Below are positions 3,769 to 61,757 of a stretch of DNA of 64,000 nucleotides, one piece after another. A program made the translations under genes and the position numbers. The stretch covers positions 682,759 to 746,758 of the forward strand of contig JAKITS010000001.1 in NCBI GenBank assembly GCA_021648085.1. Direction: 5' to 3'. The notes under the pieces are model-generated. The model saw only the letters and a list, made by a program, of their open reading frames with translations. It did not search any database and was not told the origin of the DNA. Within the stretch, counting starts at the first letter, position 1; every line of letters starts with the position of its first letter. The DNA is from Candidatus Magasanikiibacteriota bacterium. Its GTDB lineage: Bacteria; Patescibacteriota; Patescibacteriia; Magasanikbacterales; UBA922.

Positions 3769-4002
3769 TTGTCTATTATATTCAACTTGATTAAAAATCT
3801 AATTTGAATCACTGTATTATTTTAGAAACTCTAGATTCCCGATCAAGCTGGGAATGACGCTATAGGGATTTTTAATTAATTATCTGTATCTTATTTTAGT
3901 TAACCTGCTTAATTGTTAATTTACTATCTTTCTTGCTTGACAAAAGGGCTTTTTTGTGATATTGTATTATGATTATAAGGGTTCATTTTCAAGGAGGAAA
4001 AA

Positions 4003-4360: not shown

Positions 4361-4489
4361 CTGTCATTTCGAATTTAATAATACAAATGAGAAATTACTT
4401 AAATATTGTAATCATTAAGAACTTTACTTTTAAAATGTTTAAAAAAACCACTTGCCAGTGTGCAAATCTCACTTCATTCGAAATGACAG
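4361..4489. repeat. 129-bp element bounded by perfect 14-bp terminal inverted repeats (ctgtcatttcgaat / attcgaaatgacag)
   Basis: Read directly from the sequence. The 18-mer ttttcctgtcatttcgaa recurs in inverted orientation at 34215-34232. Confidence 0.7.
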
Positions 4490-6532: not shown

Positions 6533-7085
6533 AATAATTTTAGGATTTACTGGTTTTATTGCTAGTGGAAAAGGAACCGCAGCAGAATATTTAAAAGAAA
6601 AATACAATGCGCCGTCTTACAGATTTTCTACAATGCTTCGTGATATTTTAGATAGGATTTATGTAGAAAAAAATAGAGACAATCTCATAAAAACTTCAGA
6701 ATTTATTAGAAGTACTTTTGGTGAAGATGTGATGGCTAAAACACTTGGAAAAGATGTGGAAAACGACTCAAGTAATACAATAGTAGTTGACGGAATTCGT
6801 AGAATGGCCGATATTGAATACCTAACAAAAATGTCTGGTTTTGTGTTAATTCATATCGATGCAAATCCAAAAATTCGCTACGAGAGATTGGTAAAAAGAT
6901 CTGAAAATACAGACGACCAATCTAAAACTTACGAAGACTTTTTAGCAGACCACGAAAGATCTACAGAAATTAGTATTCGTGAAGTTGCAAAGCAGGCTAT
7001 GGAAAAAATTGAAAACAGTGGAAATTTTGAAGAATTAAACAAGCAAATAGATAATATTATAAAAAAATATGGAGGTCAAAATTAA
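6519..7085 (+). CDS. P-loop nucleoside/nucleotide kinase (dNMP-kinase or CoaE-like); specificity unknown
   Basis: Walker A motif GFTGFIASGKGT. It overlaps both neighbours, suggesting translational coupling. It sits inside the dTMP gene cluster. Confidence 0.55.
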   Translation: MTNNKIILGFTGFIASGKGTAAEYLKEKYNAPSYRFSTMLRDILDRIYVEKNRDNLIKTSEFIRSTFGEDVMAKTLGKDVENDSSNTIVVDGIRRMADIEYLTKMSGFVLIHIDANPKIRYERLVKRSENTDDQSKTYEDFLADHERSTEISIREVAKQAMEKIENSGNFEELNKQIDNIIKKYGGQN

Positions 7086-7497
7086 AAGAGTTGACAAATC
7101 ACTTCCACTTCCCCACTATCAAACTAAAGGGTCTGTTGCTTTTGATATTTATACACGAAAAGATATTTCAATTGAACCAAAAGAAATAAAAATGGCTCCA
7201 AGCAATTTGATTATTGAGACTCCACAAAATTTCATGCTTGTAATTGCAGCACGCTCTAGTCTACAGAAAAGAAGTTTAATGCTTGCAAATAATGTAGGAA
7301 TAGTTGATCAAGATTATTGTGGAGAAAATGACGAGATAAGCACAGCACTTTATAATTTTGGAAATGAAACCGTAGAAATTAAAGCAGGCGAAAGAATTGC
7401 ACAAGGAATTTTTGTGCCAATTGTGAAAGTAAACTGGCAAGAAGTTGATAAAATGTCTAACAATAATAGAGGTGGTTTTGGTTCAACAGGAATTTAA
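7069..7497 (+). CDS. dut: dUTP diphosphatase
   Basis: dUTPase motifs (AARSSL, GIVDQDY, and RGGFGSTG at the C-terminus). Confidence 0.9.
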   Translation: MEVKIKRVDKSLPLPHYQTKGSVAFDIYTRKDISIEPKEIKMAPSNLIIETPQNFMLVIAARSSLQKRSLMLANNVGIVDQDYCGENDEISTALYNFGNETVEIKAGERIAQGIFVPIVKVNWQEVDKMSNNNRGGFGSTGI

Positions 7498-7503
7498 AAA
7501 ATT

Positions 7504-8376
7504 ATGAAACAATATTTAGATATAGTAAAAAATGTATTGGAAAATGGAGAAAAAAAGGAAAACAGAACAGGAGTGGATACTATTGCGGTTGCTGGAGCTT
7601 TTTTCCAGCACGATATGTCCAAAGGTTTTCCAATGTTGACAACAAAAAGAGTACCTATCAGACTTGTCTCTAGTGAATTGGAATTTTTTATAAAAGGATT
7701 GACAGACAAACAGTGGTTGCAAGATAGAAACAACCACATTTGGGACGAATGGGCTTACCCAAAAAAAGCACCGTACGGACATAGCGAAGAAGCAAAGAAG
7801 AAAATGCGAGAAGAAAGAGATTTGGGTGCAATTTATGGATTTCAGTGGAGAAATTTCAATGCTCCGTACGACCACCACACCAGCGATTATTCTGGAAAAG
7901 GTGTAGATCAACTTAAAAATGTAGTTGACAAACTAAAAACAAACCCACATGACCGCAGAATGATAGTGTCGGCTTGGAATCCTACAATGATAAATGAAAT
8001 GGCTCTTCCGCCTTGCCACTATGCTTTTCAAGTGACAGTGATAAACGGAAAATTAAATCTACTCTGGAATCAGCGTTCTGTGGATGTTATGCTTGGGCTT
8101 CCTTTTAATATTGCGAGTTATGCCTTACTATTACATTTGCTCGCCAAAGAATCTGGTTTTGAAGAAGGTCGTCTAATTGGGTTTTTGGCAGATACTCATA
8201 TTTATGAAAATCATATAAATGGAGCAAAAGAACAATTAACACGCGATGTAACTAAATTCCAATTACCAAAAATAGAAACAGAAAATTTTTCATCTATTTT
8301 TGACTGGCAGTATACAGATACAAAACTTTCCAACTACCAAAGTTATCCACGAATTAAATTTGATATAGCAGTTTAA
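7504..8376 (+). CDS. thyA: thymidylate synthase (ThyA type)
   Basis: Opens MKQYLDIVKNVLENG. Carries the catalytic-Cys region PPCHYAFQV and ends with the ThyA C-terminal IKFDIAV. Confidence 0.95.
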   Translation: MKQYLDIVKNVLENGEKKENRTGVDTIAVAGAFFQHDMSKGFPMLTTKRVPIRLVSSELEFFIKGLTDKQWLQDRNNHIWDEWAYPKKAPYGHSEEAKKKMREERDLGAIYGFQWRNFNAPYDHHTSDYSGKGVDQLKNVVDKLKTNPHDRRMIVSAWNPTMINEMALPPCHYAFQVTVINGKLNLLWNQRSVDVMLGLPFNIASYALLLHLLAKESGFEEGRLIGFLADTHIYENHINGAKEQLTRDVTKFQLPKIETENFSSIFDWQYTDTKLSNYQSYPRIKFDIAV

Positions 8377-11276: not shown

Positions 11277-11384
11277 TAGCGACTCCTGTCTGCCAGCAGG
11301 CTATCATCAAGTCAAATGCAATTTGACAATTCATCAAACGAAGTGATCTATCGAGCAAAGCGATCCATCACTTCCTAATTCTTC
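11277..11384. repeat. GC-rich palindromic repeat unit (cctgtctgccagcagg; tcaaatgcaatttga; gaagtgatctatcg/cgatccatcacttc)
   Basis: Inverted repeats read from the sequence. It is related to the element at 46464-46560 (gctcgatNgatcaNttcg) and shares the aacgaagtg core with the type-A elements. Confidence 0.6.
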
Positions 11385-16278: not shown

Positions 16279-18984
16279 ATGAAAATTTTAAACGAGCCGA
16301 TTTATGACAAAAATAAATCTTATCAATACAACCTTATAAACGGTCCGTTTTTCAATGAAGAAATTCCAACGATTCCTGATGTAGAAAAAGAAAAATGGGT
16401 TGATTTTCTAGGTTTTAAAATTCGCTCCAGAATCGGTGTGCCAGCTGGACCACTCTTGAGCTCAAAATGGATAGCTCTTGCCTCGAAAATGGGGTTTGAT
16501 ATTCTCACTTACAAAACAATTCGAAGTAAATATGCAGGTGGGCACAAGAGTCCAAATATTGTGTTCGTTGAAACTCCAAACCAATTTAAAACTTCAGACC
16601 TGAACACAAATTTTACACTCAAAAAAACTCCAGTTAAAAAGACAGGTGAAATAGCAATCACCAACTCTTTTGGTATGCCTTCTATGGATCCAGATTTTCT
16701 AATAGAAGATATCAAAAAAGCTCACGCAAGTATAAAAGAAGGGCAAATTATCATAGTTTCTGTAGTTGGAAGCCAAAGCGAAAATACAAGTTTGGCAGAA
16801 GATTTTGTAAATGTTTCTAAGCTTGCAAAAAGTGCTGGTGCAAAAATAATTGAGGTAAATTTTTCTTGTCCAAATGTAAAAAGTAAAGAAGGAATTTTGT
16901 ACAAAGACTCTGAGCAAGTTTTTGAGATAATTCAAAAAATAAAAAATGAAATAAAAGAAACACCTTTAATCGTAAAACTTGGTTTTTTTGAAACTGTAGA
17001 ATCACTCCAAAAAACTTTGGTTGCAATATCAAAAGCTGGAGCCTCTGGAATTGCGGGTATAAACTCTGTCTCCGTAGCCGTTCAAAAAGAAGATGGCTCA
17101 CCAGCACTTGGAATTGGTAGAGAAAAAAGTGGACTTTGCGGAAACCCAATTCGAAATTTAGCACTAGAATTGACAAAAAATGCAAAAGAAATTATTGAAA
17201 ATAAAAGCTTAAATCTAAAAATAATTGGAATGGGTGGAGTTTCCGAACCAAAGCATTTCAATGAATTTTTGCAAGCCGGAGCCGATATTACAATGACCGC
17301 AACCACAATGCTTTGGCATCCACAAATAGCATTTGAATATAAAAAAGAACAGCAAAAAAATAAACTGGTTTCAGATTTATTTGAAATAGGCGCTATAAAA
17401 TTTGGTGGATTTACTCTAAAAAATGGAACTCTCTCGCCTATTTATATAGATCTGCGTATCACAGTTTCATATCCAAAAATTCTGATGAAAATTGCAGACG
17501 CATTAAATGAATTAGCTTCAAATACAGATTTTGATCTTATTTGTGGAGTTCCTTATACTGCCCTACCGTTTGCTACAGCAATGTCTATAAAATATAATAT
17601 TCCAATGGTAATGCGCAGAAAAGAAGCAAAAAAATACGGCACAAAAAAAATAATAGAAGGTGCTTTTGAGTCAGGGCAAACATGTTTAATTGTAGAAGAT
17701 TTGATTACAAGCGGATCTAGTGTTTTAGAAACTGTTGAACCGCTAAATGATGTAGGCCTAAATGTGACAGATGTTGTAATACTTTTGGACAGACAGCAAG
17801 GCGGAAGAGAAAATTTAGAAAAAGCTGGAATAACAGTAAAATCAATCTTTAAAATAAGTGAATTGTTGGAAACCCTTTTAAACCAAAATAAAATCTCTGA
17901 ACAAAAATTTAATGAAATACAAAATTATCTTTATAGCACAAAAATAGAAAAAATAACAATACGAAAACCAGATGATTTTCATGTGCATTTGCGCAGAGGA
18001 CAAACACTTATCAATGTTTTACCTTTTACATCCGCAGTATTCAAAAGAGCCGTAATAATGGGAAACACAACTCCACCAATTAAAAATAGTCCTGACGTTA
18101 TTTCTTACAAAAAAGAAATAGGACTGCACGCTCACGACGGATTCACGCCAATAATGTCGATAATGCTTACAAACAGCACAACACCAAAAGACATAGAAGA
18201 TGCTTTTGACGCTGGAGCAAAAGTATTAAAACTTATCCCTGAAGGAACCTCTACAAATTCCGATGAAGGTGTGCCTTTGTCACTTCTTAAAAATTATTAC
18301 AATGTCCTTAAAATTGTACAAGATTTGGGTATGATTTTCTCTGGACACTGGGAGTTAATTGAAAATCCAGAAACTGGAGAAAAAATTCCTGAAATAGAAA
18401 GAGAAACACAGGCAATTCCATTTCTTTTAAAATTAATTAGAGATTTTCCTAAATTAAAAATAGTTGTAGAACATGTGACATCCAAAGAAATGATACAAAC
18501 TGTTGAACAATCTCCTAACAATGTTTCAGCTACTATTTCTGCACACCATCCAATTTTAACTTTTGACGATGTGTGCAATAAAGATAGTGATATTATCAAT
18601 CCCCTCAATTATTGCAAACCTATCGCAAAAAATGAGGTAGACCAAAAAGCAATAATTAAAGCAATGACTAGCGGAAATCCAAAATTCTTTTTTGGTTCAG
18701 ATAGCGCTCCACATCCAATTAATCAGAAAATAGATAGCCAAAATTGTCCTGCTGGAATATTTTCAGCCCCAATTGCATTACCTTTATTATGCGAAATTTT
18801 TGAAAATGAAAATGCTTTAGATAAATTAGAAGATTTTGTATCAAAATTTGGTGCAGAATTTTATGGAATACCTTTAAACCAAGAATCTATTACATTGAAA
18901 AAGGAGCAGTGGAATACTCCTTATGAACACAACGGAATTGGAATATTTAAAGGTAAAGATAAATTAAATTGGCAAATTATTTAA
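16279..18984 (+). CDS. pyrDEC: trifunctional fusion: dihydroorotate dehydrogenase (class 1) - orotate phosphoribosyltransferase - dihydroorotase
   Basis: N-terminal domain: NFSCPN, GMGGV (PyrD family 1). Middle domain: FEIGAIKFGGFTLKNGTLSPIYIDLR...LIVEDLITSGSSV (PyrE). C-terminal domain: RKPDDFHVHLRRG...GSDSAPH...FYGIP, which aligns by eye with E. coli-type PyrC. Confidence 0.85.
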   Translation: MKILNEPIYDKNKSYQYNLINGPFFNEEIPTIPDVEKEKWVDFLGFKIRSRIGVPAGPLLSSKWIALASKMGFDILTYKTIRSKYAGGHKSPNIVFVETPNQFKTSDLNTNFTLKKTPVKKTGEIAITNSFGMPSMDPDFLIEDIKKAHASIKEGQIIIVSVVGSQSENTSLAEDFVNVSKLAKSAGAKIIEVNFSCPNVKSKEGILYKDSEQVFEIIQKIKNEIKETPLIVKLGFFETVESLQKTLVAISKAGASGIAGINSVSVAVQKEDGSPALGIGREKSGLCGNPIRNLALELTKNAKEIIENKSLNLKIIGMGGVSEPKHFNEFLQAGADITMTATTMLWHPQIAFEYKKEQQKNKLVSDLFEIGAIKFGGFTLKNGTLSPIYIDLRITVSYPKILMKIADALNELASNTDFDLICGVPYTALPFATAMSIKYNIPMVMRRKEAKKYGTKKIIEGAFESGQTCLIVEDLITSGSSVLETVEPLNDVGLNVTDVVILLDRQQGGRENLEKAGITVKSIFKISELLETLLNQNKISEQKFNEIQNYLYSTKIEKITIRKPDDFHVHLRRGQTLINVLPFTSAVFKRAVIMGNTTPPIKNSPDVISYKKEIGLHAHDGFTPIMSIMLTNSTTPKDIEDAFDAGAKVLKLIPEGTSTNSDEGVPLSLLKNYYNVLKIVQDLGMIFSGHWELIENPETGEKIPEIERETQAIPFLLKLIRDFPKLKIVVEHVTSKEMIQTVEQSPNNVSATISAHHPILTFDDVCNKDSDIINPLNYCKPIAKNEVDQKAIIKAMTSGNPKFFFGSDSAPHPINQKIDSQNCPAGIFSAPIALPLLCEIFENENALDKLEDFVSKFGAEFYGIPLNQESITLKKEQWNTPYEHNGIGIFKGKDKLNWQII

Positions 18985-19049
18985 TTGACAAAAATTAGTT
19001 TTTACTGCTTTACTTAAATAAAGAACTTTTTCTAAAAAAGGAGTATAAA

Positions 19050-19340
19050 ATGAACGCAAATATAATTAGAATTATTTTTGGAATAATCATACTTTTTTGC
19101 TTTCTATATCCGCTTAAAAAAAATATTTACATACCCAAATATCACTTAATAAAATTGATAGTTATATTTTTTATTTGCTCTTTACATATTATTCTTATTT
19201 CTTTTTATGTTTTTATTTTTGATCTTTTAATATTCACACTTGTACTTAGTTTTATTTATCTTTTTAACTTGACTTTTTTGAAAAAAAATACTAAAATAAG
19301 CAAGTTCCAAAATCAAAGGAGGAAATGGTGGATCTTTTAG
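19050..19340 (+). CDS. small hydrophobic membrane protein
   Basis: SD aaggag lies 7 nt upstream and a TTGACAAAA promoter sits at 18985. Very hydrophobic. Confidence 0.4.
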   Translation: MNANIIRIIFGIIILFCFLYPLKKNIYIPKYHLIKLIVIFFICSLHIILISFYVFIFDLLIFTLVLSFIYLFNLTFLKKNTKISKFQNQRRKWWIF

Positions 19341-19576
19341 GTATTATTTTATTGACTGTAATTTACGCGATTATTTGCGCATTAATACCAGAAAAAAGAT
19401 ATCATCTTTACGCAATTCTATTTTGTATTTTTGTTATTTTTATTTTAAATATATTAATACAAAATTATGCAGTAAACCTTTTAATTGTAATATTCGGTTT
19501 TTTATTAGGAGAAATATTAAGAGTCAATTTAACACATATAAAATCTAAAGAAGATATAAAAGGAGTAAAAGAATAA
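19325..19576 (+). CDS. small hydrophobic membrane protein
   Basis: SD aaggagg upstream. A terminator follows at 19584-19608. Confidence 0.4.
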   Translation: MVDLLGIILLTVIYAIICALIPEKRYHLYAILFCIFVIFILNILIQNYAVNLLIVIFGFLLGEILRVNLTHIKSKEDIKGVKE

Positions 19577-19583
19577 AAACAAA

Positions 19584-19608
19584 AAACCGCCAACTCGGCG
19601 GTTTTTTT
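19584..19608 (+). terminator. Rho-independent terminator
   Basis: aaaccgccaactcggcggttt followed by TTTTTT. Confidence 0.7.
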
Positions 19609-19610
19609 GA

Positions 19611-19740
19611 TAGGATCCCCAACTTGATTAGGGATCCAGGGTTTGTATAATAGTGTAATTATTATAGTTTATATATTTTTATATAAAATAATTCCGGTTT
19701 GTAAACCCTGGATTCCCGATTAGCGCGGGAATTACAAATT
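19611..19740. repeat. type-B structured repeat (three stem-loops around an AT-rich palindromic core), copy 1
   Basis: ~85% identical over ~90 bp to 27617-27745. Stems: ggatccc/gggatcc, agggttt/aaaccct, attcccg/cgggaat. Core palindrome: tttatata-tttt-tatataaa. Confidence 0.7.
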
Positions 19741-19766
19741 AGAAGTTTAAATAAACACAATTTTTA

Positions 19767-20324
19767 TTATTTCATTTTAGATTCAAAATATGAACGCGTG
19801 GTTAACCCACAAACATCCTGCTCTTTTGTATTAGCATCTGTTCCTCTTTCTTGGATTTCCCCATTAAAATCAAAAATATCTACAACACTTTTGAAACAAG
19901 TAGGATTTCCATACGGATTTGTGCCAACCTCTGTATCGCAGTTTGCAATTGGCTCAAAATAACTATTTTTATAATAACAAAAACCAACGATTACATCCCT
20001 ACAAACAAAATAACTACTGGAAATACTGTCTTCTCCACTGTGAGAAGGAAAATTTCCACAAACACTCAAATTAGTCTTATCACTAGTTCTCACATTTGTA
20101 TTTTCTGACATTAAAAATGATACCTTCTCGTTTAAATCATCCAATTGAATTTGTATCTGTTCTATATCAACTTCTGTGACAGCAGGTTTTTGAAAAATTA
20201 TCAAACTAAGCATTACTAACAAACTAACAAGAAAAGCTAGACCAACAGAAACTATAATAATCCAAACAGGCTCTCTTCCCTCGTTAATTTCATCTATATG
20301 TTTTTCATTTTCTAAAATCTTCAT
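19767..20324 (-). CDS. single-pass membrane protein with a Cys-rich extracytoplasmic domain
   Basis: N-terminal TM helix followed by 8 Cys in the C-terminal half. Confidence 0.45.
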   Translation of the reverse strand: MKILENEKHIDEINEGREPVWIIIVSVGLAFLVSLLVMLSLIIFQKPAVTEVDIEQIQIQLDDLNEKVSFLMSENTNVRTSDKTNLSVCGNFPSHSGEDSISSSYFVCRDVIVGFCYYKNSYFEPIANCDTEVGTNPYGNPTCFKSVVDIFDFNGEIQERGTDANTKEQDVCGLTTRSYFESKMK

Positions 20325-21326: not shown

Positions 21327-21394
21327 ATTTTTGAAAAAGTTCTAAATGTTCTATCACTTCACTTATTTTTTCTTTCATTTCGAATGAAACCTCT

Positions 21395-21550
21395 CACGTC
21401 ATCTTGAGCAGAACGAAGTGGAGTCGAAATATCTCGTAAACAATTCACTGTTTATATTTTTTAATTCTAGTCTTTTTAAACCAAGACCCATTCGACTTCC
21501 TGCCGGCAGGCTGGCATTTCGACTTACTCCATTTCGCTCAGGATGACGTG
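21395..21550. repeat. type-A inverted-repeat (MITE/REP-like) element
   Basis: Arms cacgtcatcttgagcagaacgaagtggagtcgaa ... ttcgctcaggatgacgtg. It also contains cctgccggcagg. It lies between miaA and miaB and abuts the miaB stop. Confidence 0.7.
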
Positions 21551-21561
21551 AATAACTAACA

Positions 21562-27590: not shown

Positions 27591-27616
27591 ATTTTTTATA
27601 CGCACCGTGTTTTTCT

Positions 27617-27745
27617 GTCATCCTCAGCTTGACTGAGGATCTAGGATTTATATTACAATGTAATTATTACAGTTTATGTATTTTTATATAAAAATAATTC
27701 TAGTTTATAGACTCTGGATTCCTAAGTCGGACTAAAAATAACAAT
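27617..27745. repeat. type-B structured repeat, copy 2, preceded by a type-A-like arm (tgtcatcctcagc)
   Basis: Aligns with 19611-19740 over the core gtaattatta(c/t)agtttat(g/a)tatttttatataaaa(a)taattc...ctggattcc. Confidence 0.7.
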
Positions 27746-34187: not shown

Positions 34188-34232
34188 CCTGCCGGCAGGC
34201 AAGCCCCACTTTGGTTCGAAATGACAGGAAAA
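34188..34232. repeat. GC-rich repeat fragment (gggattcccgcctgccggcagg...ttcgaaatgacaggaaaa)
   Basis: Shares cctgccggcagg with 21497 and the 18-mer with 4356-4373 (inverted). Confidence 0.6.
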
Positions 34233-40851: not shown

Positions 40852-40929
40852 TTTCAGCGCCCAAAAGACCGGAGCAAATCCGGTCTTTTTTTTATTTTAT
40901 TTTTTCCCATCCTAATTTACCACCTCAAT

Positions 40930-41074
40930 CACGTCATCCTGAGCGGAACGAAGTGGAGTCGAACGGATCCCAGTGCAATATCATCAGAACTATGAATATT
41001 TTATGTTCTGGTTATTCTGTTGCGAGATCCATTCGACTCCATTCCGTTTCACTCCATTTCGCTCAGGATAACGT
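40930..41074. repeat. type-A inverted-repeat (MITE/REP-like) element, near-complete copy
   Basis: Arms cacgtcatcctgagcggaacgaagtggagtcgaacggatccc ... cgaatggagtcgaatggatctcg...cgctcaggataacgt (~145 bp). Confidence 0.75.
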
Positions 41075-41093
41075 AAATTATAAATAAAAATAA

Positions 41094-42512: not shown

Positions 42513-42907
42513 ACTAATTAATAATTAAATTTAACCCTTATACATACATGTGTGTGGGTTGCTCCAAATGGAGCTAAATAAATGGAACCTTTGGTAAAAA
42601 TAGCACCGTCACAAAATCTTCAAATTTTGAGCGAGATGAAAAAAAATCTTTGTTCTTTTAAAGTATACAAAATATTTTTTCTTAAAATCATAGCCAAAAT
42701 TTGGAGATTTTAGTAGGTGATGTGTTTACTAAAGGTTCCTGAAGTGCTAACTATAACACAACTCTTGAAAAAAATCAAGTACAACGAACACAGATTGTGT
42801 GCAACATATTCAAAACCGTACTTGCACAGAGTAATAATCTAAGATACAATATGAAAGCAATCAAAAAAATACTTAATTTTTAGCTATTAACTCTTAAATC
42901 TGAATTT

Positions 42908-46463: not shown

Positions 46464-46560
46464 TGATAAATCGTTAACGCTCGATGGATCATTCGCTTCG
46501 CTCATTTGATAAATCGAAAAACCATGTTTTTCTTGATGCATAACTTCGCTTGAATAAAGA
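46464..46560. repeat. repeat unit related to 11277-11384 (cgctcgatggatcattcgcttcg), flanked by direct tgataaatcg
   Basis: Immediately follows the gyrA stop. Confidence 0.55.
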
Positions 46561-51198: not shown

Positions 51199-51780
51199 TT
51201 TTTTACTATCACAAATACTTATTTTGTCTACAAAGACTTGACAAAGTTTTATTTTTATGATATTGTTGCTCTTGTTCATAACGCAAAAGCTTGTCAAGTC
51301 GCAGCGGATCTAAGTCATTTAAGCATCCGTACATGTTTGACTTACACACAAGTAAACACGCTTTGAACATTTCAAAAAATGTTTGCAAGGATTTTATCCA
51401 AAACAAACATCAAATGTCATATTGGTGATACTTGCCCTTTTTGGGCAGTATCGTTTCAAACACCTATTGAGCTGGAGAACTTAATAAGTGTTTGAAACGA
51501 TGCTATTCAAAAAAACACCTCCCCAATTACTAATTAAACAAAAAATATGGTTTTCCCAGCAGAACTTATCTCATTATTTTAAACAAAAGAAGATAGTATA
51601 AACCTTTCTCCACTTAATTGAATCCTTGAGTTATTCAAGGATTCAACAGAGTCTAGTTTTAAACATTAGTCAAAAACAATTTTCCGCTTAATTTGTGTAA
51701 GAAATATACAAATTAAACTGGAAATGGTTTCCAAAAAGGTGTCCCTCCCTTTGAGTGATAATAAAAAAAAGGAGGTTTAA

Positions 51781-53603: not shown

Positions 53604-53957
53604 ATGAAGATTCTTGTAGATAATAAACCTGGTTCTTCAAAACTGGAGATAGATAGTGAAAATGATGCTCTTTTAGCCTCCATTTCTCTTGATATTACCG
53701 AAGGTATTATCAATAGTCTAAGCTCTTGGACAATTATAGAAATTAATGGGAAAGATTTTTGTGTAATTTCAATGATACGAGCAGATTTTTTTATGTTTAA
53801 TTCCAATTTGTCAATAATTCCACTAAATAAAGAAATGATTTTTTATTTTATTACTGAGTGCCAAACGGCACTCAGTGAAATAAAGGAAGGCTCAAAAGAG
53901 GAATCTTTTTGGGCAGCCAAAATTGTAAAGCTAGACAAAATTTTGTCTCATTACTAA
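53604..53957 (+). CDS. hypothetical protein
   Basis: SD aaaaaggag upstream. A terminator at 53965-53995. Confidence 0.45.
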   Translation: MKILVDNKPGSSKLEIDSENDALLASISLDITEGIINSLSSWTIIEINGKDFCVISMIRADFFMFNSNLSIIPLNKEMIFYFITECQTALSEIKEGSKEESFWAAKIVKLDKILSHY

Positions 53958-53995: not shown

Positions 53996-54074
53996 TTGGC
54001 ACTAATTATATTATAGGGTTTTCTATTTAATTACAAAACAACCTTAATTCTTAACCTCGGAGAGGTCTTTCTTC

Positions 54075-54236
54075 CACGTCATCTTGAGCGACAGTCGAAA
54101 GATCCCCGTGCAATATCACAAAATATAAATAATTATAATAAAACATAAGTCAGTTTTTTCTTTTGTTCTTTGTTAGTTCTGGTGATTCTATTTCGAGATC
54201 CGTTCGACTTCACTTCGTTCCGCTCAGGATGACGTG
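54075..54236. repeat. type-A inverted-repeat element flanked by a perfect 28-bp direct repeat (54043-54070 and 54303-54330)
   Basis: Arms cacgtcatcttgagcgacagtcgaaagatcccc ... gatccgttcgacttcacttcgttccgctcaggatgacgtg. The direct repeat is cttaattcttaacctcggagaggtcttt. Confidence 0.75.
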
Positions 54237-54336
54237 AGAGAATAGAATTAAGAAATAAGATAGAAAGAAAATTTCCTACTTAAATACGAAGTAGTCTTAG
54301 TACTTAATTCTTAACCTCGGAGAGGTCTTTTTCTGA

Positions 54337-60014: not shown

Positions 60015-60030
60015 TTAATATGTTATATTT

Positions 60031-60141
60031 AGCGGAACAAAGTGAAGTCGAAATATCTCGTGTCTATTTCATAAGAATTTTATATATTTATAATTCTATG
60101 AAATTTAATCGAGATCCTTCGACTTCGCTCAGGATGATGTG
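60031..60141. repeat. type-A inverted-repeat element (left arm truncated)
   Basis: agcggaacaaagtgaagtcgaaatatctcg ... cgagatccttcgacttcgctcaggatgatgtg. Confidence 0.7.
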
Positions 60142-60166
60142 ATTTATTTTATATAATTTAAAAAAT

Positions 60167-61569: not shown

Positions 61570-61680
61570 AAGATCGAAGTAAATTCGATCTTTTTTTAAT
61601 CCCCGAACATTTAACTACCTAAAAATAAATTAAATTTTAATTTTAATTTTTGGATGAATGTTTGAGTGAAATTAAGATAA

Positions 61681-61709
61681 GATCCTTCGACTTCGCTGAG
61701 GATGACGTG
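61681..61709. repeat. solo right arm of a type-A element
   Basis: gatccttcgacttcgctgaggatgacgtg. Confidence 0.6.
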
Positions 61710-61757
61710 GAAACGATCCTCAAATATGCTATAATATAATAAATTAATTATAAAAAA

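Follow-up and report, generated by a model that had tools for sequence, protein, structure and literature searches.

What kind of element are the short GC-rich inverted repeats that recur between the genes of a patescibacterial genome, and does any enzyme belong to them? The question is raised by an element at positions 40930–41074 of a 64,000-nucleotide stretch of Candidatus Magasanikiibacteriota DNA (the window; contig JAKITS010000001.1, 682,759–746,758). An earlier note had placed this element in a family of MITE- or REP-like repeats with ~ 14 loci in 64 kb. The window is low-GC bacterial DNA, as had been stated (~ 33%); we measured a GC content of 0.29–0.35, and the genome is put at ~ 32% GC. 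Its housekeeping genes, assigned with Pfam, include miaA and genes for a MiaB-like radical-SAM enzyme, ribosomal protein S1, IleRS, Rpe, a TrxB-like protein and a PfkB-like protein. We did not detect tRNA or tmRNA genes in a search of the window. The cumulative GC skew is highest at ~ 18000–20000, where gene orientation switches from + to −, and the two together suggest that the replication terminus lies there.

The repeat family is real. The arm motif CGCTCAGGATGACGTG occurs eight times in the window at three or fewer mismatches, against 0.05 expected, and the arms share a common layout that reads (CA)CGTC, ATCCT-GAG-CG, a variable insert, and AGT-CGA-AGGAT-C(TC). We used two covariance models to define individual units. 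R1 was trained on 68 units from other phyla with no sequence from the window, which was then scanned with filters off; R2 was trained on 27 canonical units that flank GIY-YIG (Ssn) genes in metagenomes. R1 recovered 10 arm units with E-values from 2.4e−11 to 6.8e−3 (the next match had E = 1.9), which group as four head-to-head dimers, one solo unit, and one variant (27612–27645). R2 added three canonical units (3830–3861, 19615–19639, and 19707–19738) and rescored 27614–27645 at E = 3.1e−8. Together, the models support 13 units at 8 loci, five or six of which are head-to-head dimers with the tags outside and spacers of ~ 43–90 bp. The number of loci in the window is therefore about eight rather than ~ 14, even with a dimer that had been overlooked (19615–19639, +, and 19707–19738, −). 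The claim that all copies are intergenic holds for the supported loci (8/8). A detector built on GTCA plus an 8-bp hairpin was dropped, as it gave 8 matches versus 5.6 in shuffled sequence and missed most of the real units.

In the focal dimer, the left unit (40928–40973, + strand; R1 47.2 bits, E = 2.6e−11) has the tag CACGTC, the stem ATCCT-GAG/CGA-(C)GGAT, and the apical insert GGAACGAAGTGG. It is followed by an AT-rich spacer (40974–41021), weakly similar in sequence to the spacers of the other dimers, and by a right unit that is partly decayed, with the tag TACGTT and a longer insert (41022–41077, − strand; R1 30.3 bits, E = 1.5e−6). Between the miaB-like gene and miaA lies a dimer with a left unit at 21393–21437 (+; R1 40.9 bits, E = 1.5e−9) and a right unit at 21481–21552 (−; R1 22.1 bits, E = 3.4e−4, and alignment). 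What had been listed as a related module at 21497 is the GC palindrome CCTGCCGGCAGG (21499–21510), inserted within this right arm. Downstream of ileS, a left unit with the compensatory stem ATCTT/AAGAT (54073–54108, +; R1 42.3 bits, E = 6.3e−10) is paired with a right unit at 54193–54238 (−; R1 47.3 bits, E = 2.4e−11). In the rpe–trxB dimer, the left arm had been taken for truncated at 60031; we find a full arm that starts at ~ 60017–60019 and is decayed (60017–60061, +; R1 27.4 bits, E = 1.1e−5), with every C position of its terminal 16-mer mutated. Its partner lies at 60109–60143 (−; R1 39.3 bits, E = 4.3e−9). The solo right arm reported at 61681–61709 corresponds to an R1 unit upstream of the pfkB-family gene (61677–61711, −; 36.3 bits, E = 3.1e−8).

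The remaining units are of the canonical type. The left-arm-like piece noticed at 27617–27640 is part of the unit TGTC-ATCCTCAG-CTTGA-CTGAGGAT-CTAG (27612–27645, +; R2 39 bits, E = 3.1e−8; R1 E = 6.8e−3). The partner arm near 27700–27722 is decayed, and 27620–27722 is 81.6% identical to 19615–19716, which is part of the overlooked dimer. In that dimer, the left unit has lost its tag (19615–19639, +; R2 17.9 bits, E = 0.017) and the right unit, ATTCCCG…CGGGAAT, has a core like that of dRS3 and NTS (19707–19738, −; R2 23.8 bits, E = 4.4e−4). This dimer (19615–19738) is located at the switch in gene orientation. A solo unit, CGTC-ATTCCC-AGCTTGATC-GGGAAT-CTAG, lies at 3830–3861 (−; R2 27.9 bits, E = 3.2e−5). 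Across the arms, the tag is CACGTC in five, TACGTT and CACATC in decayed arms, TCTGTC at 27612, and AGCGTC at 3861. The dimers of the window are 60–72% identical to one another over their full length, so activity here may be ancient. Those at 40930 and 21395 have the same polarity and the same arm types; whole dimers thus appear to have been copied long ago.

The earlier note had also proposed a set of related GC-rich palindromic modules. The one at 3830–3861 belongs to the family, as just described; for those at 4361–4489, 11277–11384, 34188–34232, and 46464–46560, neither R1 nor R2 gave support (E > 1). The segment 4361–4489, an AT-rich core between the inverted ends CTGTCATTTCGAAT…ATTCGAAATGACAG, looks like a decayed dimer of an ATTTC-stem subfamily, for which the best match to either model has E = 8.8. 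The palindrome CCTGCCGGCAGG recurs, exactly or in related form, at ~ 34196–34212 and ~ 11285–11300, both intergenic, and may be a separate tiny repeat. The motif downstream of gyrA (46464–46560; gattcatcaagcgaagc-like) is tandem and degenerate, is conserved in a relative (L322, 1990–2100), and is not a tagged hairpin. Two long imperfect inverted repeats are likewise unrelated to the tagged hairpins: one at 42584–42739, 165 bp upstream of the S1 gene, and one of 76 bp at 51438–51513.

The motif is not confined to one lineage. When one genome per species was scanned with CACGTCATCYTGAGCR-N(0–16)-AGTCGAA, at least 120 matches came up, where by our own estimate about one is expected by chance, and GGATC or AGATC, which the query left unspecified, came next in nearly all matches listed. 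The hosts among the matches listed represent ~ 18 phyla: they include Pseudomonadota (alpha, gamma, and delta-type lineages), Bacteroidota, Bacillota (Parvimonas, Clostridia), Actinomycetota (Bifidobacterium, Coriobacteriia), Verrucomicrobiota, Planctomycetota, Chloroflexota, Acidobacteriota, Nitrospinota, Gemmatimonadota, Fibrobacterota, Armatimonadota, Vampirovibrionales, Margulisbacteria, Sumerlaeota, and Patescibacteria (Falkowbacteria, Magasanikbacteria). It is common in IMG/VR contigs as well. Head-to-tail R1 tandem arrays were seen in a Gemmatimonadales MAG (L200, 987–1168; three copies 79 bp apart) and in Sediminibacterium (L151, 144–240; three copies 33 bp apart). A search of literature full text with the motif sequence as query returned only unrelated primer matches.

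Which gene accompanies the motif? We clustered the open reading frames within 400 bp of it at 240 loci, and the sole family that recurs across unrelated genomes is a GIY-YIG protein of ~ 92 aa. In the reverse test, 80 metagenome loci were selected purely by homology to this protein. Within 150 bp of the GIY-YIG gene, the density of R1 units is 2.13 per kb, compared with 0.14 per kb farther out, a 15-fold enrichment. Upstream R1 units lie on the strand of the gene in 24 of 26 cases, and at 12 of the 80 loci the gene sits inside a head-to-head dimer, with a + unit upstream and a − unit downstream. GIY-YIG loci without R1 matches have canonical tagged hairpins at the equivalent positions (for example, TGTCATTCCCGCGAAAGCGGGAATCCAG, GTCATTGCGAGG…GCAATC, and TGTCATCCCGAACTTGTTTCGGGATCTC). 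Canonical units were found upstream at 18 and downstream at 15 of 64 loci, compared with four and four in the wrong orientation and 1.1% in far control zones. The proteins are 87–112 aa long with a single domain (PF01541 only), and one profile retrieves both the genes flanked by R1 units and those flanked by canonical NTS-like units. In 49 of 50 cases, a nuclease and its most similar counterpart share the type of flanking unit. In two genomes of Patescibacteria type (CPR), chosen by protein homology, ssn is closely flanked by units.

This association is already known from work on NTS and related SRM motifs, which flank ssnA (Chenal et al, 2025, Nat Commun 16:2388; PMC11893778). The product of ssnA, a GIY-YIG protein of 94 aa (cd10448), binds the hairpin only on one of the two strands, as ssDNA, and cuts just upstream (PMC11893778). 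In the PDB, we found no solved Ssn structure; the nearest entry, a weak match, is UPF0213 protein BH0048 (1zg2). In the 64-kb window, searches for a GIY-YIG gene or remnant (tblastn, HMM) gave only noise, including a weak match at 53672–53833 in an open reading frame without a Pfam match, and none of the best 120 Ssn homologues listed comes from the source contig. Two Ssn open reading frames run into the downstream unit and stop at the TGA in the complement of its tag (GAATGAC; L292 3226–3540 and L174 4570–4914), so that the repeat supplies the stop codon. Three phage-like IMG/VR contigs are dense in R1-type units (L093, with 8 in 14 kb; L086, with 5; L050, with 4), and the contig DNA examined contains no ssn gene, which is odd if Ssn restricts motif-bearing single-stranded DNA.

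The identity of the recurrent neighbor bears on a second family of explanations, in which the units are REPs or REPINs mobilized by RAYT or palindrome-associated elements of IS200/IS605 with TnpB. The earlier note had named an IS200/IS605 TnpA/TnpB, or another transposase, as the cognate enzyme to look for. At the 240 loci, we found no recurring transposase family next to the motif, no cluster of Y1 enzymes adjoining the units, and no link to IS200/IS605, RAYT, or TnpB; the bracketed position is taken by the GIY-YIG gene of Ssn type. There is one weak Y1_Tnp gene 3.6 kb from ssn in L329. The logic is shared in outline: in REP/REPIN–RAYT systems, too, a tag and hairpin are recognized on ssDNA, inverted doublets are the likely replicative unit, and the enzyme gene is bracketed. 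The tag is GTAG or GTGG there, however, and CGTC or TGTC here, and a covalent HUH Y1 transposase contrasts with a hydrolytic GIY-YIG nuclease, so that the strand-transfer chemistry of RAYT and IS200 cannot be assumed. CGTC repeats also had no dedicated transposase association in an earlier survey (Di Nocera, De Gregorio & Rocco, 2013, BMC Genomics 14:522; PMC3733652). We regard mobilization by RAYT or an IS200/IS605 enzyme as extremely unlikely.

The arms are tagged hairpins in which (C/T)GTC is followed by a covarying stem of 5 bp, tandem G.A/A.G, a further pair, a variable apical insert, and a TC tail. Among genome matches whose 3′ half was unconstrained by the search, the fourth stem pair is C-G in 127 and T-A in 28, with seven exceptions. 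The 87 distinct units adjoining GIY-YIG genes have eight stem types (ATCCT, ATTCT, ATCCC, ATCTC, ATTCC, ATGCT, ATTTC, and ATCGT), and the 3′ complement is perfect in 71. The inner three positions read GAG/CGA in 61 units, GAC/GGA in seven, and GAA/TGA in two, that is, tandem G.A/A.G followed by a covarying pair. In the main family, 6 to ~ 30 nt separate the stem halves, and the insert often has its own covarying mini-hairpin (GCGAAGC, GGCC-GAA-GGCC, or GCCC-GATA-GGGC). In the 27612 unit, all eight stem positions are Watson–Crick (ATCCTCAG/CTGAGGAT) and the loop is 5 nt. The two arms of one element (L152) bear different self-complementary stems, ATCTT and ATGCT, so that selection acts on the hairpin of each arm rather than on pairing between arms. 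Readings of the core as a hammerhead, twister, or kink-turn were rejected by eye, since the core nucleotides fit none of them.

Folding bore out the inverted repeat of the focal element (40930–41075), which is near-perfect and forms a long hairpin with predicted energies of −66.7 and −73.9 kcal/mol on the two strands (z −9.4 and −10.8). Within a dimer, such arm-to-arm pairing would compete with the hairpin of each arm. Single units of the main family have no stable predicted ssDNA fold (z +0.3 to +1.3). Among canonical units, 27612 is predicted to fold as DNA (−7.1 kcal/mol, z −3.5), as is 19707–19738 (z −2.2).

A hairpin of this stability could also be selected as RNA, with the elements acting as terminators, mRNA stabilizers, or small RNAs. 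A whole dimer would make a very stable RNA hairpin, two of the dimers (miaB-like/miaA and rpe/trxB) lie within apparent operons and are thus probably transcribed, and RNA roles were proposed for such repeats by Di Nocera et al (PMC3733652). The focal dimer, however, lies outside both neighboring transcription units, between two convergent intrinsic terminators, and no Rfam family matches the window at the gathering threshold; at a permissive threshold, the best sub-threshold matches were generic hairpins or the neighboring terminator. Moreover, in a head-to-head arrangement the tagged strands of the two arms lie on opposite DNA strands, as would be the case for DNA recognition, and SsnA of Neisseria binds no RNA (PMC11893778). 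Selection at the RNA level is very unlikely in our judgment, and effects of the units on transcripts are more likely a side effect.

Related genomes differ in these elements. The rpe–trxB spacer is 152 bp long in the window and is filled by the dimer at 60017–60143, whereas it contains no unit in three relatives: it is 34 bp in one whose TrxB is 83% identical (L327), 99 bp in one at 81% (L332), and 9 bp in one at 76% (L328). The absence of the dimer from all three shows turnover and is comparative evidence for gain or loss, which the literature had only hypothesized. In a relative with an 89% identical S1, a solo R1 unit and a canonical dimer lie downstream of gyrA, and both are missing in the window. 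Downstream of trxB, a relative has a canonical dimer and the window a solo R1 unit; downstream of S1, the neighboring gene itself differs between the window and the relatives.

Absence at the same junction in relatives, together with inverted termini, small size, and intergenic position, is what one would expect of classical MITEs, deletion derivatives of an insertion sequence that are moved by a DDE or other transposase, which recognizes the terminal inverted repeats, and flanked by target site duplications. In a loose sense the MITE label stands, as the dimers look like gene-less derivatives of a unit–gene–unit element and one of them is inserted at a junction where three relatives lack it. 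We did not find direct repeats abutting the ends of any of the four dimers that were searched for a target site duplication, nor was a precise empty site defined, and, as noted above, no transposase family recurs at the 240 loci. Each arm is a tagged hairpin that folds on itself rather than a simple terminal inverted repeat, the stems of the two arms covary independently inside a single element, and solo units and tandem arrays are common. All of this argues against MITEs in the classical sense, which we hold to be highly unlikely. At the ileS locus, an exact 28-bp direct repeat, cttaattcttaacctcggagaggtcttt, at 54043–54070 and 54303–54330 brackets the dimer at 54073–54238 and 66 bp of extra sequence; its right copy lies just after the ileS stop codon, 66 bp from the right end of the dimer. 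It could be a duplication made on insertion of the bracketed segment.

How gene-less forms can arise is shown by a locus shared by two Parvimonas genomes (L156, ~ 6900–7800, and L127, 3900–4300). One genome has an intact ssn, and in the other the first 18 nt of ssn are fused to the 3′ flank and a unit, with a second intact ssn nearby. We consider it likely that the elements of the window are head-to-head dimers and solo units of CGTC/TGTC-tagged hairpin repeats, gene-less derivatives of a unit–ssn–unit element and recognition sites of Ssn. The unit is a directional ssDNA hairpin with an unpaired 5′ (C/T)GTC tag, an 8-position stem that starts with A-T and T-A, and a short tail on the 3′ side. 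Tandem G.A/A.G occupies stem positions 6–7 in the main family, where the loop is widened by the variable, often self-pairing insert. The dimers of the window would derive from unit–ssn–unit by lack of the gene and would be sites for a cognate Ssn-type nuclease that is encoded elsewhere or now lost. They appear to have come and gone between genes while related species diverged, and most copies in the source genome look old. By analogy with the Neisseria system, we infer that these units may be cleaved by Ssn, that they may spread by way of it, and that they could serve the host, for example in restricting incoming ssDNA.

A further possibility is that the units of this genome are inert relics, decaying without a partner enzyme or a function. 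The divergence of the copies, the arm in which all C positions are mutated, and the lack of an ssn gene in the window or, among the best 120 homologues listed, from the source contig all fit such decay. Several arms, however, are near-consensus (47 bits) in a genome of 32% GC, where neutral GC-rich sequence should erode, and relatives bear units at other sites, which implies continuing turnover. We think it quite possible, at somewhat less than even chances, that the units are relics. This concerns their present activity and not their identity, and it is compatible with their derivation from unit–ssn–unit elements.

More tentatively, the G.A long-loop units and their own Ssn clade could be a distinct mobile element that spreads horizontally and transposes by means of a hydrolytic GIY-YIG nuclease and host repair. 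Unit–ssn–unit would then be the autonomous form and the head-to-head dimers the non-autonomous one. If true, this would add a new class to the mobile elements of prokaryotes, one that is overlooked by the published motif definition and that occurs in almost every bacterial phylum, CPR bacteria included, and in phage-like contigs. We consider this doubtful, if possible.

How do these repeats compare with known ones? The ATTCCC-N-GGGAAT core of Neisseria dRS3/NIME arrays is also found in the window, at 3830–3861 and 19707–19738. In Neisseria, dRS3/NIME copies form large mosaic clusters and are targets of phage integration, and the RPEs of Rickettsia are often inside genes. Unlike dRS3/NIME and RPE-4/RPE-6, which have other hosts, the copies in the window are all intergenic dimers or singletons.

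The repeat class and its GIY-YIG partner have both been published, and the window adds no new system. As in the NTS/SRM–Ssn system, directional tagged hairpins lie on both sides of a single-domain GIY-YIG gene of ~ 90 aa in other genomes. The published system has hundreds of gene-less copies across intergenic DNA, and the units of the window are also gene-less and intergenic. The canonical units (ATTCCC…GGGAAT, tail TCYAG) resemble the Neisseria NTS, CGTCATTCCCGCGMAVGCGGGAATCYRG. In contrast to that system, the window contains no ssn, and the host is a CPR bacterium rather than Neisseria or another symbiont. The authors showed strand-specific binding, and cleavage of ssDNA a few bases upstream of the tag, for the Neisseria and Wolbachia proteins, each on its own motifs, found SsnA inactive on dsDNA and RNA, and reported that it restrains transformation in Neisseria; they likened NTS–ssnA–NTS to an insertion sequence, and mobility was not demonstrated there (PMC11893778). 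The published SRM pattern, HGTCWYN(0-2)YYVSBRHN(0-5)WNVSBRGN(0-2)RNCYNB, has no match on either strand of the window (0.02 expected). The G.A long-loop subclass falls outside this pattern yet flanks about one third of the sampled Ssn genes, and current censuses therefore probably underestimate these motifs. That the nuclease sequence tracks the motif type is useful for mining Ssn/motif pairs as ssDNA tools.

The description of the family as REP-like was apt: tagged imperfect hairpins arranged as inverted head-to-head dimers are the architecture of CGTC-tagged REPs. These have the tag CGTC, TGTC, or CCTC, a stem of 8–9 bp that starts with A-T and T-A, and a loop of 4–5 nt (other loop lengths in some families); they occur mostly as head-to-head dimers with the tags outside and spacers of 20–100 bp, and dRS3 of Neisseria and RPE-4/-6 of Rickettsia belong to the superfamily (PMC3733652). 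The units of the window agree with them in the 5′ CGTC/TGTC tag, the short 3′ tail, the intergenic position, often downstream of genes, with no transposase nearby, the stem of eight positions (AT(C/T)(C/T)(T/C) and three inner ones) that begins with A-T and T-A and has five covarying Watson–Crick pairs, and the prevalence of head-to-head dimers with outside tags. The main family differs in the tandem G.A/A.G at stem positions 6–7, which is not Watson–Crick, and in a loop of 6 to ~ 30 nt with a mini-hairpin, outside the 4–5 nt of the published repeats. It is possibly an undescribed structural subclass, defined by the tandem G.A stem and the expandable apical hairpin. CGTC-tagged repeats were reported from five phyla (PMC3733652), whereas the 30-nt core of this subclass is unchanged in ~ 18 phyla among the matches listed, which include Patescibacteria and thus ultra-small CPR bacteria.
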